Below, one piece after another: positions 15,001 to 27,000 of a stretch of 64,000 nucleotides of DNA; position 1 is the first letter of the stretch; every line of letters starts with the position of its first letter. The position numbers are program-made. The stretch is from an uncultured Gemmatimonadales bacterium (lineage in GTDB: Bacteria > Gemmatimonadota > Gemmatimonadetes > Longimicrobiales > Gaopeijiaceae). Location: NCBI GenBank assembly GCA_963809895.1, contig CAWELD010000010.1, positions 1,120,001 through 1,184,000 on the forward strand, written 5' to 3'.

Positions 15001-18000
15001 GGCCAGGCTCCCACGTCGACGGCGCTGCTGGCCTGGCTCGAAGAGCACGACGACGTGCCTCAGATGGTCGTGGACGCCGACGGCCGCTGGAAGGACCACC
15101 TGGCCCGGGCCTCACGCTATCTGCGGGCGGATCCGGTCGATGCGTTTCGCCGACTGCACGACGTGGGTCTGGCCCGGCGAGCGTCGGCGCCGTGGCGCGA
15201 GCGGTGGCGCCGACTCGATCGGGCCGCCGCCGAGGTGGTCCAGGCCGCGGGTCGCGCCGCCGAACCCCACGAGGGTGGCGTCCTGGCCGCGGTCACGGCC
15301 CAGCTTCCCGAGGGCACGCCCCTCTTCGTCTCCAGCTCCATGCCCGTCCGGGACCTGGACGCCTTCGGCGGCGCGCGTCCGGTGACGCTGCCGGTGTTCG
15401 GCAACCGGGGCGCCAGCGGCATCGACGGGATCGTGTCGACGGCGCTGGGGGTAGCTGCCGGCTGTGGGCGGCCCGCGGTCGCCGTGCTCGGTGACCTGGC
15501 CCTGTTCCACGACGTGAACGGTCTGCTCGCGACCCGGGAGCCCGATGCCCGGGTGGTGTTCGTGGTGATCAACAACGACGGCGGCGGGATTTTCCACATG
15601 CTGCCCGTGCGGGATCACGAGCCGGAGTTCACCCCCTACTTCGCCACCCCCCACGGGCTGGACCCGGCCTCGGCGGCGGCGCTCTACGGCGTCGCCCACC
15701 GGCGGGTGGAAGGGCTCGCCGCGCTGACCACCGCGGTCGCGAAGGGCCTGGACGCGGGTCAGAGCGTGCTGCTGGAGATCCGGACGGATCGCGAGGCGAA
15801 CCGCCGGGGCCACGACGAGGTCGTGGCGGCCGTGCGACGGGCCGTGACGGCCCTGCTCGACGACGACGACGAGGAATGGAATCAACCGAAGGAGAATTGA
15901 CGTGGCGCAGCCGGACTGGACGACGGTCAAGGAGTACGAGGACATCACCTACAGGAAGGCCGACAAGGTGGCCCGCATCGCCTTCAACCGGCCGGAGGTG
16001 CGCAACGCGTTCCGGCCCGAGACCCTGCTCGAGCTGCAGGACGCCTTCCGCGATGCCGGAGAAGATCCCGACATCGGCGTGGTCCTCCTCACCGGCGAGG
16101 GACCTGCGCAGGACGGCAAGTACGCGTTCTGCTCGGGCGGTGACCAGCGCGTGCGTGGGGATGCCGGGTACGTCGGCGGCAACGGCATGCCGAGGCTGAA
16201 CGTCCTGGAGCTGCAGCGCTACATCCGCAGCATGCCCAAGCCCGTCATCGCCCTGGTCGCCGGCTACGCCATCGGAGGCGGTCACGTGCTCCACGTGATC
16301 TGCGACCTCACCATCGCAGCCGACAACGCCGTGTTCGGCCAGACCGGGCCCAAGGTCGGCAGCTTCGACGGGGGCTTCGGTGCCTCGTACCTGGCCAGCA
16401 TCGTAGGGCAGAAGAAGGCCCGGGAGATCTGGTATCTGTGCCGCCAGTACTCGGCCCAGGAGGCGGTGGACATGGGGCTGGCCAACACCGTCGTGCCCGT
16501 GGAGGACCTCGAGGCCGAGGGTTGGCGGTGGGCCCAGGAGATCCTGGACAAGAGCCCGCTGAGCATCCGGCTCCTCAAGAGCGCGTTCAACGCCGCCGTG
16601 GACGGACAGGCGGGGCTGCAGGAGCTGGCGGGCAACGCCACCCTGCTCTTCTACATGACCGAGCAGGCGCAGGAAGCCAAGAACGCCTTCCTGGAGAAGC
16701 GCAAGCCGGACTTCCGGCGCTATCCGTGGCTTCCCTGGTGACCTTCCGCGGCCCGCAGGTTCAGGCCGGCGGCTCGTCCATTCCGGCGTAGCGACGGCGT
16801 CGGTAGAGCAGGGGAGGGCGCTCCGGCGTCACGGTAGCGTCGATCACGCGCCCAGCACAAGGCGGCTCCCGGTCTCGCTGTCGAAGGTCTCACGGACCTG
16901 GCAGACCAGGGTGGCCATGGCGCCCTCTACCGTCGGGTCACCGGTGGCCGCGAACGGACTCGGGCCCACCGGAAAGCTGTCGGCGAAGATCTGCGCGAGG
17001 CGCGCCTGATCGCGGGACAGGAGACTCACCACGAAGCGCGATCCGGGCTGGAGGAAGGGCAGCACCTGCGCGCCGCCGCCCAGCGCCACCAACACTGTCG
17101 GCGGGTCGGCCGCCACCGGGGTCAGCGAGGTGACGGTGGTGCCGTACACCCGGCCGTCATGGCGGACCGCCACCAGCGCCACGTGGGCGGCCCAGTGCGC
17201 GAACACCTCACGGAAGCGCTCGGGTGGGATCGCGGGGCTCGAATCGGTGGCTGAGGGTGCGGTCACGGTCCCTCGGGGATCGGAGTAGCGGAGCCAGTTC
17301 CAGCGAACCCCGGGCCACTTCGGCAGTTCCGGGAGGGGGAACTGTGGCCCTCGACCGGACGTGCGAGGATTACGCGGTGGCGGTCGCCGCGTAACCGAGC
17401 CAGGTGAGCAACACGATGTAGAGCAGCGCCACGGCAGCCAGGATCCGCCAGATCGGCGTGCCCTCTCCTCGCGATGCTCCGCGATCCAGGAACGGGATCA
17501 GCACCAGCACCACCCCACCCAGGCCGAACGCCAGCACGCCCAGGAGCTCGCCTTCGATGCCCAGGACGTGGCCGGGCAGGAGCTTGAGCGTCTGGAACAT
17601 GAACATGAAGTACCACTCGGGCCGGATCCCCTCGGGCGCCGGTGAAAAGGGGTCGGCCTTCACGCCCAGCTCGGCCGGGAAGAAGGCGGCGGCGCTGGCC
17701 AGAACCGCGAGTATCGTGAGCCAGCCCACCAGGTCCCGGATGACGAAGTTGGGCACGAAGGGGATCTGGCGCCGGACACTCCCGGAGCGTTCGACTCCCG
17801 GCGGCACGCTCATCCCGTGGATCTGCACCTGGGCCACGTGCAGCGCCATGAGCAGGAAGGTGAGCCCGGGCAAGATGGATACGTGAAGGGCGAAGAAGCG
17901 GGTCAGCGTGGCCCCGGTGACGTCTTCGCCTCCTCGCAGGAAGTCACGCACGAAGGGACCAATCCCCGGAATCACGCCGGGGATCTCGGTCCCTACCCGT

Positions 18001-24000: not shown

Positions 24001-27000
24001 GCTCCCACCGCCGGCGCGTCCTGCTCGCCGCCACACGACGGCAGGGTGAGCAGGGCGAGCAGAAGGAGGAGCCCTCCTGCTCGCCCGGTGCCTTCGATTC
24101 GGGTCACCGCACCAGCCCGGGCGGTGCCTGCAACTGGGGCGCCAGGCTCACGCCGGAGACCGCCTGGAGTCCGTAGTCCTCCTGGACCTGAGCGATGCTC
24201 GCCGTCAGGAGGGCCTCGGTGAGGAACGGGTTGTGGATGGCCGAGCTGGTGATCGCACCCAGCCCAGCGTTGAACTTGGCACCTTCGGCCGTGGTGTAGA
24301 CGCCATCGGTCGTGTCGAACTCGGTGGAGGGCACCAGGTCCAACAGGGCGTCCAGATCGTCCACCAGCTCCTTGATACGGCTGGTGGCGACGAGGTAGGC
24401 CGAGCGGGCGGCCTCCTCAGCGCCGTGGCAGCCGCTGGCCGTGCAGGCGGCGAAGCTCCGCTCCGTCAACGCGCAGTCGTCGTTCGCCGTGGGGATCCCT
24501 TGTTCGTCCAGGCAGGGAATGGGCTTGAAAAGGTGCCCTGAAGCGTTGAACACGAACGCGCCCGTCGCGGCATCGGTGACTTCCAGGCGATGAACGTGGC
24601 AGGTGGCGCACAGGCGAGGATTCCGCTCCGTGCCGTGGGTGCCGACGATCGAACCGTTCTCGTATTGGAAGTTCGGTGGCCTCCAGCCGACATCCTCACC
24701 CAGGAGAAGCGGTCCCTGGGGCGAGTGGGGCCCGCGGGAACTCGTGGGATCGGGCTCCGCGCGCCGGTGGTGGCACTTCATGCACAGGTTCACCTCGACG
24801 TTGGGCACGTCGATGGGATAGCGGAGCTGGCCCTCGTTGGTGGCGTCGTGGGGATCGTGGCAGACGGCGCACGTGATCCCGATAGGTTCACCGCCGTCGT
24901 CCTTCTCGATGAACTCGGCCTTGATGCCCCACGCCTTGAAGACGCCCCGTGCCTCGTGGCAGGGTCCGCACGATTCCGTTTCGCGTGGATGCGCACTTCC
25001 GGCGTCCCCGTGACGAGATTGCGACCACTCCTCCACGAAGGGGTTGTGAACGCCCTGATGGCACTCGCCGCAGCCGCTGGTCAGCCCCACACCCACGACG
25101 ATCGAGGCCAGCGGTTGTGACGCATCGGGATTGGTCACGTGTTCGAGCCCCGGGCCGTGACAATTCTCGCACTGCACGTCGGTGTAACGGGCGTCGGCGG
25201 TCGCCGTGAACCCGACCTGGGTGTCCGTCACCCAGTTGCCGTTCGCGCTCACCGAGTGGCAGGGTTCGCAGCTGTCGGAGGCGTGGCCACTCTCCTGCAG
25301 GTCGTTCCACGCCCCGGCGTGGGCCGTCTGTTGCCACTCCGAGTTCTGCCCGACGTGGCAGTTCCCACACACGGGCAGCCCTTGCTCGATGTTGCTGTAC
25401 CCCAGGAAGCCCTGGGCCGCGGTGGGTGGATCCTCGAAGAGTTTCCGCTCGACGAGCACGGTCTCGGTGTCGACACACGAAAGGAGTGTGAGCACGACCG
25501 TGGAGAACAGGGACCAGCGGAGTACTGCGTACGAGCGAGCGTTCATTCGAGGCCTCCCGTCTGTTGACCCATGTCCTCCTCATGGAGGACGTTCGGGGAC
25601 GGTCGGAGTGCGGATGCTCATGTCCGGCACGGGAGGGACGGGTACCGGAACCGCACGTCCGACGGGGGCGTCCGGGAAAGCGAGTCGCCGGAGCTGCCCA
25701 GGTGTCCGCTGGCCGGTCCACGCGTGGTCCACGGATGCTGCGCTCTGCACGTCACCCTTGGACTCAGAGCGGAATCGGCATAGCTTCAAGTTGAAACGGA
25801 TCCGTTTCCTACGCGTGCCTTCGATCGTTACCGGTGCGTTACCGCACCGTTTGAATAGCCGAGACCCTCCCGGTCCGGCGAGGTCGACATGATCGAGTTG
25901 CGCACGCTCGGATCGCTGGCATTGGCCGGCGACGTGGAGCAGGACCCGGCCAGGGTCTTGTCGAGGGCGAAATGCATCGCCCTGCTCAGCTACCTGGCGG
26001 CGGCCACGCCGGTGGGCTTTCACCGCCGCGACAAGCTGGTGTCCATCTTCTGGCCCGAAGCCGATGAGCGTCACGCTCGGGCATCCTTGCGGAAGGCCAT
26101 CTACGGGTTGCGGCGCTGTCTCGGCGCCGATCTGGTCGTGGGGCGGGGGGCCGAGGAGCTGGCGCTGGACGCCACTCGCCTGTGGTGCGATGCCGTGGCT
26201 TTCCACAGCGCGGCCGAGGCCGGCCGGAACGAGGAAGTGATGAGGCTCTACGGCGGGGATTTTCTCGACGGCCTCCACGTGTCCGGGGCCCCGGAGTTCT
26301 CGCACTGGGCCGAGCTCGAGCGCGACCTTCTCCGTCGGCGAGCGGCACGCTCCGCCTGGCAACTCGCCGAGGTGGCCGAGGAACAGGACGATCCCCGGGC
26401 CGCCATCCGGTGGGCGCGCCGGTGCATGAACCTCCTTCCGTACGACGAGGGATGCTTGCGGCGCCTCCTGCGTCTCTATGATCGGTACGGCGAGAGAGCC
26501 GCGGGCCTGCAGGCCTTCGAGAGGTTCGAGAAGAGGCTGGCGGAGGACCTCGACCTGCGGCCCTCGGCGGAGGCTCTCTCCCTCGTCCGCTCCCTCCGGT
26601 CGCGCGGTGGAAGCGCCGGTCCGTCGTCGGCAAGCCCGGACGAGGCGCGGCTCTCGAGTAGCGACGGCCTGGCTGTCGCGGTGCTTCCCTTCGCATGCCT
26701 GGCCGACGACCCCGAGCAGCGGCAGCTCACGGACGGGCTCCATGAGGAGGTGATGCGCCGACTCGCAGGTCAGCACTGGGCCCGCGTGACGTCACGTACG
26801 TCGGTGATGCGGTTTCGGGATCGGTCTCTGAGTGTGCGCGACATCGCGTCCAGCCTCGGCGTCGGCCTCCTGGTGGAGGGCAGCGTGCGCTTCTGCGAAG
26901 GGCGTGTGCGGGCGTCCGCGGCGGTCATCGACGCCCCTACCGACCGACAGCTCTGGACCGGTACCTATCAGGTCCCCACGTCCGCCTCCTTCACGTGGGA

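Follow-up and report, generated by a model that had tools for sequence, protein, structure and literature searches.

A seven-gene operon of multihaem cytochromes, a barrel and a Rieske/cytochrome b pair

The window, the whole stretch of 64,000 nucleotides that was analysed, comes from a soil/wetland Gemmatimonadota bacterium. Reading of open reading frames and motifs located seven minus-strand genes, here named A to G, at positions 17370-25546 (Table 1). Neighbouring genes overlap by 4 nt (GTGA or ATGA) at five junctions and are separated by 4 nt at the sixth, so that the seven genes form one translationally coupled operon, as the genome-wide survey's note on this DNA had claimed. The four cytochromes together hold 44 haem sites (CxxCH and Cx4CH). 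The CxxCH counts given in that note were reproduced; its totals for A, B and the paralogue of B were too low, because inclusion of Cx4CH motifs raises them to 9, 10 and 20 sites, respectively. A menaquinone biosynthesis locus surrounds the operon, and the only RNA evidence is four short metatranscriptome contigs of ~98% identity, from one library that may contain DNA.

Table 1. Genes of the operon, with positions in the window.
Gene	Product	Position	Strand	Length	Haem motifs or family matches
A	nonahaem lipoprotein cytochrome, OmhA/OcwA/NrfA superfamily	24104..25546	-	480 aa	8 CxxCH + Cx4CH
B	decahaem lipoprotein cytochrome, long Ala/Pro-rich tether	23259..24107	-	282 aa	9 CxxCH + Cx4CH
C	predicted outer-membrane beta-barrel, 22-24 strands and plug-less in the model	21775..23262	-	495 aa	0 haem motifs
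D	16-haem periplasmic cytochrome, Sec signal peptide	20321..21778	-	485 aa	16 CxxCH
E	9-haem cytochrome with C-terminal membrane anchor	18966..20324	-	452 aa	9 CxxCH
F	Rieske 2Fe-2S protein, N-terminal membrane anchor	18467..18961	-		PF00355
G	cytochrome b, fused b6-like and subunit-IV-like parts	17370..18470	-		PF00033, PF00032

The paralogous cluster that had been reported on contig C3 was found, with similar identities. Its genes encode 8, 17, 0 and 16 CxxCH motifs and a small TPR lipoprotein, and they share 56% (A), 40% over 194 aa (B), 35-37% (barrel) and 42% (D) identity with the window. A raw scan of the genome gave 19 stop-to-stop ORFs with at least three CxxCH motifs, some of them overlapping frames, which agrees with the 17 such proteins counted earlier.

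The 16-haem cytochrome is predicted to thread the barrel

Barrel C has no match in Pfam or NCBIfam, and its profile found no PDB sequence at E<0.1. Every named member among its 476 homologues comes from Gemmatimonadota or Longimicrobiales. The structural model (pLDDT 79.5) aligns best with 22-strand TonB-receptor barrels (Z 19, barrel part only); those barrels normally contain a plug, which the C model lacks. This model makes C a large outer-membrane barrel; its family has so far been seen only in Gemmatimonadota, and the fold match is generic for large barrels. The earlier reading of C was thus borne out, including its caution that C does not resemble MtrB in sequence.

Cytochrome D is tightly conserved and coupled to the barrel. 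All 16 CxxCH motifs and 16 further histidines are invariant across 42 sequences, exactly 16 CxxCH motifs are present in 68 of the 72 complete orthologues, and the D gene adjoins the barrel gene in all 72 loci with room. Residues 333-481 match the MtrC/MtrF domain II/IV family PF22113 at 42.7 bits; the match had been described as sub-threshold, but it lies above the Pfam cut-off of 30 bits.

Structure prediction placed D within the barrel. The predicted complex scored an ipSAE of 0.72 (runs 0.73, 0.67 and 0.72) against 0.00 for the best control, with ~390 contacts, a partner pLDDT of 74 and at least 70% of contacts shared between runs. In calibration, the mark was reached by 116 of 157 solved complexes and by 2 of 215 mismatched pairs. 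The prediction was made without haems from alignments that we built ourselves, and its score may partly reflect likeness to the solved MtrAB complex. Interface residues of D span positions 260-477, and those of C include its invariant loop 305-321 together with alternating residues of strands around the whole barrel (111/113/115/117, 414/416/418 and 431/433/435). The C-terminal third of D is therefore predicted to lie inside the barrel, and we propose that C is a sheath through which D would cross the outer membrane. D had been labelled MtrC-like, but an ordinary signal peptide and the predicted threading point to the role of MtrA.

Cytochrome A is related to surface metal reductases

Protein A had been described as an 8-haem MtrA-like cytochrome; that assignment was rejected, since A is a nine-site lipoprotein whose closest solved relatives are surface metal reductases. 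Its profile matched OmhA, the S-layer undecahaem protein of Carboxydothermus ferrireducens (6qvm, E 1.6e-19 over positions 73-436), and OcwA of Thermincola potens (6i5b, E 2.9e-14), and the same two structures were the top Foldseek hits of the A model, the pLDDT of which is only 64. OcwA is described as a cell-surface terminal reductase with a three-helix bundle (PMC6703420). A shares its nine haem sites, and the low-confidence A model shows three long C-terminal helices (377-402, 419-431 and 440-458). Identity to the two proteins is nevertheless only ~20%, and A is a diderm lipoprotein encoded beside a barrel, whereas OmhA and OcwA reside on Gram-positive cell walls or S-layers.

These features of A are conserved. 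Among 61 complete orthologues the lipobox cysteine was found by regular expression in 60 and by eye in the remaining one, and the haem sites (CxxCH + Cx4CH) number 8+1 in 50, 9+0 in six and 8+0 in two. The Cx4CH site of A (residues 368-374) has an invariant cysteine and histidine and is replaced by CxxCH in some orthologues. We propose that A is the outer, surface-side terminal redox protein, a location that we infer.

The superfamily of A also contains nitrite, hydroxylamine and sulfite enzymes, which counts against a conduit. Alternatively, A may be a periplasmic catalytic enzyme that allows a soluble or colloidal compound to be respired, for example nitrite, hydroxylamine, sulfite, tetrathionate or selenite; the other cytochromes would then supply its electrons, and the barrel would serve as a substrate channel or scaffold instead of a sheath. 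The kinship with NrfA, octahaem nitrite reductases, HAO and MccA is in keeping with this, as is the reported reduction of nitrite and hydroxylamine by OcwA in vitro (PMC6703420), and the porin-like ExtI of a similar Geobacter cluster is described as implicated in selenite and tellurite reduction (PMC5877670). Moreover, only seven invariant and one near-invariant non-motif histidines accompany the nine haems of A, so that an open catalytic haem is possible, and some loci have NapA-like neighbours. However, the A profile matched the superfamily enzymes only at E 1e-2 or worse, and a motif search of the A sequence found no CxxCK. D is predicted to fill the lumen of the barrel, and a soluble periplasmic substrate would hardly call for 44 haem sites in four proteins or for a 16-haem protein so strictly coupled to a barrel. 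We consider this alternative improbable.

Interchangeable modules that probably link the core to the quinone pool

Protein B matches the cytochrome c7 and class III cytochrome families of Pfam. In type I orthologues a cysteine follows a hydrophobic stretch in 28 of 28 sequences (G/A/S at position -1 in 27) and is followed by a linker of 50-70 aa, and 27 of the 28 have nine CxxCH and one Cx4CH; B is proposed to be a periplasmic relay. It had been called NapC/NirT-like, but a Pfam search found no NapC/NirT part in the window's B, which is 40% identical to the C-terminal half of its paralogue. Only the paralogue has an NrfH-like N-terminus. There, as in type II loci, a transmembrane helix precedes an invariant CxxCHxM, and the top PDB match of the type II profile is NrfH (2j7a_C, E 5.3e-8, positions 23-109). 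This domain differs from NrfH, NapC and NirT in being fused to 16 more haem sites (17 CxxCH and three Cx4CH in all), and the single paralogue sequence reaches only 18 bits on PF03264, where the cut-off is 24.1.

In the window the quinone module consists of E, F and G. The E sequence shows a signal peptide, ~75 aa of helical stalk and a single transmembrane helix at the C-terminus; nine CxxCH motifs are present in all 28 orthologues, and in type I loci E always lies directly upstream of the Rieske and cytochrome b genes. We propose that it is the cytochrome c1/f equivalent of a bc-type complex. F matches PF00355 (41.8 against 20.3 bits) and the PetC anchor, and its Rieske boxes read CTHLDC and CACHNGH. 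G matches PF00033 (171 bits) and PF00032 (47.6 bits), contains PEWY and scores 224 bits on the NCBIfam b6 model and 204 bits on the ExtP model, both under their cut-offs.

Of 201 Gemmatimonadota genomes sampled, 90 carry the barrel and with it the core of A, B, barrel and D; A lies upstream in 56 of 60 loci. Among 52 loci with enough flank, the core is accompanied by E, Rieske and cytochrome b in 26, by an NrfH-like transmembrane domain fused to B in 14, and by a NapA-like enzyme, a multihaem cytochrome, a DsrO-like FeS protein and a DsrP-like NrfD protein in seven; no locus had two of these modules. Such a pattern is expected of a core that must be connected to the quinone pool exactly once.

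No PF00033 gene other than G was found in the assembly (95% complete), so the complex might also serve general respiration. It could even be a general complex III feeding oxidases, co-transcribed by accident with an unrelated cytochrome and barrel set: two haem-copper oxidase genes are clear in the genome, a third, weak COX1 match falls short of the family cut-off, and the operon sits within the menaquinone locus. This would leave unexplained why the seven-gene order recurs in those 26 loci across Longimicrobiales, Gemmatimonadales and Gemmatimonadaceae MAGs, and why the bc genes are missing exactly where the core carries another quinone module. For aerobic respiration, two NrfD-family genes (one of them close to a 5-haem ORF) hint at an alternative complex III, and relatives carry a second, different cytochrome b (~90-100 bits). 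An accidental association is thus highly unlikely.

A proposed trans-envelope conduit and the direction of electron flow

The computed results comprise the order and coupling of the genes, the conservation of their haem sites, their family assignments, the fold of the barrel, its predicted complex with D and the pattern of modules. With a probability of roughly 0.6 we read the operon as encoding an electron conduit across the envelope that is coupled to a quinol oxidase of its own. According to this model, F and G would oxidize menaquinol, with membrane-anchored E in the c1/f position of their complex; electrons would then reach the tethered lipoprotein B and pass to D within its barrel sheath, from D to A, and finally to an acceptor outside the cell, for example Fe(III) or Mn(IV) minerals, humics or a partner cell. 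We infer the order B to D to A, as well as the direction of flow. Against this model, bis-His multihaem chains are usually of low potential, and a Q-cycle requires an acceptor above the quinol potential.

Porin-cytochrome systems work in both directions, as MtoAB and PioAB illustrate. The same structure might therefore take up electrons from outside the cell (Fe(II), Mn(II), reduced humics, a cathode or a partner cell) and deliver them to periplasmic reductases or, via the bc-type complex, to the quinone pool, a somewhat unlikely but credible alternative. Thirteen of 80 cores adjoin a NapA-like molybdoenzyme, a multihaem cytochrome and an FeS/NrfD pair, and at one locus (L012) the enzyme exceeds the NCBIfam NapA cut-off (938.6 against 904 bits). 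Such neighbours could indicate nitrogen chemistry or electron uptake, and they fit extracellular uptake coupled to nitrate reduction. The window operon itself, however, has no periplasmic reductase and a quinol-oxidase-type complex as its sole inner-membrane partner, and running that complex backwards would cost energy. In addition, an uptake-type [NiFe] hydrogenase with cytochrome b adjoins six of 14 type II loci with room and would supply rather than consume quinone-pool electrons, and the solved relatives of A are reductases. On balance, outward flow is mildly preferred over uptake.

Comparison with known conduits

The survey's note had presented a self-contained bc-complex-to-surface set as new. 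The combination of bc complex, porin and cytochromes, however, is already known from Geobacter sulfurreducens, where extHIJKLMNOPQS (GSU2940-2930) is described as one conserved cluster that encodes a porin-like outer-membrane protein and, besides a Rieske protein and a b-type cytochrome, multihaem cytochromes with 5, 12, 10 and 4 haems, of which one is a lipoprotein (PMC5877670). More generally, Geobacter ext clusters are described as pairing porin-like proteins and cytochromes with Rieske/cytochrome b or hydrogenase (PMC5877670, PMC6148476). The ExtP score of G supports the likeness, although it misses the cut-off of 290 and is exceeded by the score on the generic b6 model. In the published description, cytochrome b is split (ExtP and ExtQ) rather than fused, the outer partner is a rhodanese-like lipoprotein rather than a cytochrome, ExtI is smaller (45 kDa, 12-21 predicted strands), and no 16-haem protein is included; ExtI, K, L, M and N were compared by description only. 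The same holds for Geobacter Pcc (OmaB-OmbB-OmcB) and ExtABCD/ExtEFG, which differ in haem numbers and protein sizes.

Shewanella MtrCAB likewise combines a barrel-sheathed periplasmic multihaem cytochrome with a surface lipoprotein cytochrome. The MtrC/MtrF domain match of D adds to the resemblance, and in the predicted complex D enters its barrel in a way that resembles MtrA in MtrB (described in PMC12133095). In contrast to that system, barrel C has no PF11854 match and is modelled with 22-24 strands instead of 26, the protein predicted to be inserted carries 16 haems and not 10, the DmsE/MtrA model TIGR03508 scores far under its cut-off, and the outer protein is OmhA/OcwA-like rather than MtrC-like.

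Complete trans-envelope conduits had been claimed for both clusters. Comparative genomics and complex prediction favour a quinone-pool-linked trans-envelope conduit, with roles assigned to its components that differ from the original labels. It appears to be a familiar type of machine assembled from unfamiliar parts.

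Operon structure and genomic setting

Seven open reading frames with high third-position GC, designated A to G, follow one another on the minus strand (see the table below). Neighbouring genes overlap by 4 nt (GTGA or ATGA) at five of the junctions and are separated by 4 nt at the sixth, and the seven genes almost certainly form a single translationally coupled operon. Our preferred reading, to which we give a probability of roughly 60%, is that this operon encodes an outward-directed electron conduit from the quinol pool to the cell surface; a conduit working in one direction or the other is very probable. 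The CxxCH counts reported in the genome-wide survey's note were reproduced on recounting, and one extra Cx4CH site was detected in each of A and B. The paralogous cluster that the note placed on contig C3 of the same genome is likewise real, its A, B, barrel and D proteins being 56%, 40%, 35-37% and 42% identical to the window copies. A promoter and terminator scan of 16700-26000 returned no promoter-like sites and two terminator-like sites, both intragenic and not above the level of shuffled sequences.

Coordinates and CxxCH counts of the operon genes and of neighbouring features in the window
Feature	Position	Strand	Product	CxxCH
A	24104-25546	-	lipoprotein cytochrome	8
B	23259-24107	-	lipoprotein cytochrome	9
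C	21775-23262	-	outer-membrane barrel	0
D	20321-21778	-	multihaem cytochrome	16
E	18966-20324	-	multihaem cytochrome	9
F	18467-18961	-	Rieske protein	0
G	17370-18470	-	cytochrome b	0
Flanking gene	16844-17266	-	flavin reductase	
Flanking gene	25889-27076	+	BTAD-domain regulator	
men locus, upstream part	12566-16741	+	isochorismate synthase (MenF-like), MenD, MenB	
men locus, downstream part	27104-29526	+	MenA, MenE-like ligase	
Third multihaem gene	40898-42343	-	multihaem cytochrome, 481 aa	8

The flavin reductase and BTAD regulator genes that flank the operon were not detected, at E 1e-10, in any of the best 80 of 426 loci carrying a barrel homologue. Together with the operon they are enclosed by a menaquinone biosynthesis locus. 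Since MenB, MenA and MenE are contiguous in L015, a barrel locus of another genome, the window's men locus looks as if it had received an insertion of about 10 kb. A conserved link between men genes and the cluster was rejected: they lie near it only in L009 and L015 (2 of the best 80 of 426 loci), and MenB-like matches in L004, L077 and L079 are weak (27-29% identity) and look like other crotonases. The men-gene neighbourhood is a local accident, not a rule. The window's third multihaem gene, which matches PF13447 (multi-haem cytochrome) with 89.9 bits, is adjoined by a PadR-type regulator and two MacB/FtsX-type permeases; paralogy with A was ruled out (best E 2e-4).

The barrel and its predicted complex with cytochrome D

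Barrel C matched no Pfam family at E<=0.1 (PF11854 MtrB/PioB included) and no NCBIfam entry, and its profile, run against all PDB sequences including MtrB (6r2q_B), found no match but an unrelated one at E 0.11. The model built from its alignment is all-beta with 22-24 strands (pLDDT 79.5), and its Foldseek matches were exclusively outer-membrane barrels. In a second structural aligner, 22-strand TonB-dependent receptors ranked highest (Z 19 over some 360 residues); this alignment was limited to the barrel part of the receptors, indicating that C is a receptor-sized barrel without a plug. Two invariant cysteines, Cys 74 and Cys 81 (window about 23020-23043), lie seven residues apart in an N-terminal insertion and may form a disulfide.

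The survey's claim that this family is specific to Gemmatimonadota was supported. All named members among 476 homologues belong to Gemmatimonadota or Longimicrobiales, and the best 80 of 426 barrel loci in species-representative genomes all come from Gemmatimonadota or unclassified MAGs. The ESM Atlas gave as neighbours unnamed clusters, which are commonest in Gemmatimonadota, and at 0.92 generic porin families. Even sampling of the phylum recovered the barrel from 90 of 201 genomes, which fall in 48 of 98 genera.

A complex between C (residues 29-495) and D (residues 36-485) was predicted without haem, each protein having its own alignment. The pair reached an ipSAE of 0.72 (runs 0.73, 0.67, 0.72) versus 0.00 for the best of three controls, with about 390 contacts, a partner pLDDT of 74 and at least 70% of contacts shared between runs. 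Of 157 solved complexes 116 attain the calibration mark for this score, as do 2 of 215 mismatched pairs; these counts apply only approximately to user-made alignments. In D the predicted interface spans residues 260-477, in the barrel it takes in residues between 38 and 468, and the modelled barrel contacts include alternate strand positions (111/113/115/117, 414/416/418, 431/433/435), the pattern of a lumen lined by its partner. The tightest predicted pairs join the barrel's invariant loop at about 305-321 (FELWTIWGAF, its most conserved element), which is disordered in the monomer model, to the invariant segment 425-443 of D. By the long-loop/short-turn rule applied to the strand list, this loop and loop 191-216 would be extracellular, so that the C-terminal haems of D would reach the outer face. 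The solved MtrAB complex could bias the model, though the barrel has no detectable sequence likeness to MtrB. Barrel C is predicted to sheathe the multihaem cytochrome D.

Cytochrome D itself has an ordinary Sec-type signal peptide and 16 CxxCH motifs that, together with 16 further histidines, are invariant in 42 sequences; the additional histidines would suffice for bis-His ligation throughout. Its earlier description as MtrC-like holds for one domain: the C-terminal part passes PF22113 (42.7 vs 30 bits), but D lacks a lipobox, carries 16 haems rather than ten and falls outside the MtrC/OmcA family. The D profile matched solved MtrC (6r2q_C) at E 0.039, and its best solved matches, 16-haem HmcA cytochromes, were confined to one c3-like module. 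No match was obtained to TIGR03508, the MtrA/DmsE decahaem family.

Cytochrome A is related to cell-surface metal reductases

The N-terminal signal peptide of A ends in a lipobox-type cysteine in 60 of 61 complete orthologues by a strict pattern, and in the 61st by eye. The Cys and His of its Cx4CH site (residues 368-374) are invariant, and the site is a CxxCH in some orthologues. Haem sites, counted as CxxCH plus Cx4CH, were 8+1 in 50 of the 61, 9+0 in 6 and 8+0 in 2; thus, A has nine haem sites. Two long A open reading frames, in L034 (about 1526 aa, 24 CxxCH) and L018 (about 739 aa, 17 CxxCH), are possibly fusions with further haem domains.

A profile of 42 A sequences matched the S-layer undecahaem cytochrome OmhA of Carboxydothermus ferrireducens (6qvm) at E 1.6e-19 over 364 positions and Thermincola OcwA (6i5b) at E 2.9e-14, whereas c554, HAO and nitrite reductases were far weaker (E 1e-4 to 1e-2). 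Sequence homology therefore places A in the OcwA/OmhA group of the NrfA/c554/MccA superfamily, and not with MtrA as the survey had proposed: TIGR03508 scored only 32.8 bits against a cut-off of 192. PF22113 (MtrC/MtrF domain II/IV) gave 30.2 bits at a cut-off of 30, a likeness to the MtrC/OmcA family confined to that domain, and assignment as a UshA-like (seleno)protein was rejected (70.6 vs 275 bits). The model of A has three long C-terminal helices, and a fold search put 6qvm and 6i5b on top; at a pLDDT of 64, this was counted only as agreement with the sequence result. OcwA is described as a terminal reductase of the cell surface that carries nine haems, ends in a three-helix bundle and is kin to NrfA, c554 and MccA (PMC6703420). 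We propose A as a candidate cell-surface cytochrome akin to metal reductases, with the conserved lipobox as the sole sign of its location.

The same kinship makes it possible that A is instead the centre of an enzyme system acting on a soluble substrate. Enzymes of that kind occur in its superfamily, nitrite and hydroxylamine are in vitro substrates of OcwA (PMC6703420), and A has only eight conserved non-motif histidines for nine haems. However, no CxxCK motif is present in A, and both the invariant coupling of barrel and D and the predicted filling of the lumen argue against such a system.

Cytochromes B and E and the Rieske/cytochrome b pair

B is a lipoprotein in loci with the window's gene set (type I), a cysteine following the hydrophobic stretch in 28 of 28 orthologues with G, A or S at -1 in 27. 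An Ala/Pro-rich tether of 50-70 residues leads to ten haem sites (9+1 in 27 of the 28). E, encoded directly upstream of F and G, begins with a signal peptide and ends in a single transmembrane helix; it also has nine haems (28/28 orthologues) and some 75 residues of helical structure. This is the membrane topology of cytochromes c1 and f. E scored 41 bits against TIGR03508 (cut-off 192), and comparison with the N-terminal domain of the paralogue's B gave no real similarity (E 0.004). E orthologues in L009, L015, L029, L031, L035 and L049 are 554-741 aa long rather than the usual ~450; they still have nine CxxCH and carry an extra C-terminal extension, ahead of the Rieske protein.

F and G belong to the Rieske and cytochrome b families of bc1/b6f type. 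F passes PF00355 (41.8 vs 20.3 bits) and contains both cluster-binding boxes of a 2Fe-2S Rieske protein, CTHLDC and CACHNGH. G exceeds the cut-offs of PF00033 (171.3 bits) and PF00032 (47.6 bits), contains PEWY and fuses b6-like and subunit-IV-like halves. It was rejected as Geobacter ExtP (NF040969 equivalog; 204-206 bits), the cut-off of 290 being exceeded in none of 21 related genomes.

The 95%-complete assembly has no PF00033 gene other than G, so the Rieske/cytochrome b part possibly also shares in general respiration. The assembly has two NrfD-family genes, one near a five-haem open reading frame as in alternative complex III. In other genomes, the bc genes accompany the conduit. The genome also contains two clear haem-copper oxidase genes and a third, weak COX1 match below cut-off. 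One subunit I gene (C10:1110694-1111983, 375.6 bits) lies ~8 kb before the window start and ~26 kb from the operon, the second on C3. Also on C3, the 5-haem ORF near an NrfD-family gene (3183735-3188614) may belong to an alternative complex III, and two further multihaem clusters lie at 569294-576296 and 2185651-2193245, with ORFs of 11 to 19 CxxCH and, ~46 kb from the paralogous conduit, of 11, 12 and 15 CxxCH.

The conserved core is combined with alternative quinone modules

Window proteins were compared by tblastn with the best 80 of 426 barrel loci. Among these, D adjoins the barrel in all 72 loci with room for it and A lies upstream in 56 of 60, so that the genes for a barrel and for two multihaem cytochromes, one periplasmic and one a lipoprotein, are clustered, which is the gene set of porin-cytochrome conduits. 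Modules were counted in the 52 of these loci whose flanks extend for 1.9 kb or more upstream and 6.3 kb or more downstream.

Modules associated with the A-B-barrel-D core in 52 loci drawn from the best 80 of 426
Module	Loci
Lipoprotein-B + E + Rieske + cytochrome b, as in the window	26/52
Long B, as in the C3 paralogue	14/52
Lipoprotein-B, then NapA-like molybdoenzyme, multihaem cytochrome, DsrO-like FeS protein, DsrP-like NrfD membrane protein	7/52
Without B, beside [NiFe] hydrogenase	3/52
Module unclear	2/52

In none of the 52 loci did two quinone modules occur together. That every core comes with exactly one quinone-interacting module argues most strongly for the core's need to be connected to the quinone pool, and for the Rieske/cytochrome b pair as that connection here.

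The long B (17 CxxCH and three Cx4CH) starts with a transmembrane helix followed by an invariant CxxCHxM, and shares its linker and C-terminal decahaem domain with the lipoprotein form. A profile of 21 orthologues found the NrfH quinol dehydrogenase as best solved match (E 5.3e-8, positions 23-109); as a single sequence, the paralogue's B scored 18 bits against PF03264 (NapC/NirT), under the 24.1 cut-off. An uptake-type [NiFe] hydrogenase and its cytochrome b lie within a few kb in 6 of 14 long-B loci. Across the best 80 of 426 loci, uptake-type [NiFe] hydrogenases occur within a few kb of the core in 11 (L019, L027, L054, L068, L075-L081), mostly loci of the NrfH-fused type; that of L077 comprises small and large subunits and a cytochrome b561-type subunit. 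The homologous hydrogenase of the window's own genome lies away from the window, at about 1.005 Mb on C3.

The NapA-like enzyme set adjoins the core in 13 of the best 80 of 426 loci, downstream of D in L036, L039, L040, L041, L043, L045, L051, L052, L012 and L004 and nearby on the other strand in L017, L018 and L028. Its NrfD protein passes the DsrP cut-off. The L012 enzyme alone passes the NCBIfam NapA cut-off (938.6 vs 904 bits), those of L040 and L041 failing; L004 and L012 also carry a NapD-like gene. These neighbours would suit an inward flow, in which electrons taken up through the conduit are used for nitrate reduction. The outward flow that we prefer would suit the nearby hydrogenases, the kinship of A with reductases and the fact that the bc complex is by nature a quinol oxidase.

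Comparison with known conduits

Known outer-membrane electron conduits (Mtr, Pcc, Ext, Mto/Pio, Cyc2) are mostly from Pseudomonadota and Desulfobacterota, and the porin-cytochrome conduit as a class is already known. The closest layout to the window operon is Geobacter extHIJKLMNOPQS. This cluster is conserved across Geobacteraceae and encodes the porin-like ExtI, cytochromes of 5, 12, 10 and 4 haems, the Rieske protein ExtO, cytochrome b ExtP and the membrane protein ExtQ (PMC5877670). A bc-type complex encoded with an outer-membrane conduit, which the survey had called new, is thus already present there. With ExtHIJKL alone, Fe(III)-oxide reduction is reported to reach 50% and Mn(IV)-oxide reduction 75% (PMC6148476).

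The survey's overall interpretation is therefore partly supported: the operon and the barrel stand and a quinone-linked conduit is favoured, while the bc-plus-conduit novelty and the Mtr labels do not hold, the window proteins failing membership of the Mtr, DmsE and ExtP families. The new elements are the barrel family, the insert with its 16 haems, the finding of an outer cytochrome of OcwA/OmhA type in a diderm, the way in which three quinone modules replace one another and the breadth within a major soil phylum. For Gemmatimonadetes, one CbcL homologue and two of ImcH are recorded in one survey (PMC6295460). In the accessible text of the literature on Gemmatimonadota porin-cytochrome, multihaem or extracellular electron transfer systems, whose supplementary tables might list such genes, no description of the cluster was found.

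Occurrence and biological implications

Gemmatimonadota are among the commonest soil phyla and abundant in soils, wetlands and sediments, and their anaerobic physiology is poorly known. Parts of the operon are matched by DNA contigs of metagenomes from wetland, soil and salt marsh (shares 0.26-0.34). In one sediment metatranscriptome library, cytochrome b, the barrel and A are matched by four short contigs of 162-264 nt with 2-4 mismatches, none of which bridges a gene junction by 31 nt and for which DNA carry-over is possible.

We suggest tentatively, at somewhat less than even odds, that a porin-cytochrome machine of their own arose in Gemmatimonadota, in the form of a portable outer module that different lineages have joined to one of three quinone units. 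The module would comprise an OcwA-like surface nonahaem cytochrome, a tethered decahaem cytochrome, the phylum-specific barrel and a 16-haem insert; the quinone units would be a bc-type complex, an NrfH-type quinol dehydrogenase, often near an uptake hydrogenase, and a NapA-like/NrfCD unit. The parts of this complete candidate system escape standard annotation; its barrel falls into no family, and surveys by marker genes would overlook it. The three-way exchange of quinone modules is a natural experiment on how a conduit is wired to the inner membrane. If the portable-module reading is true, some half of the phylum, as unrecognised metal respirers or nitrate-dependent Fe(II) oxidisers, could pass electrons to or from minerals, humics or partners, and the principle of MtrAB would have been invented a second time, independently, in the barrel-D pair.
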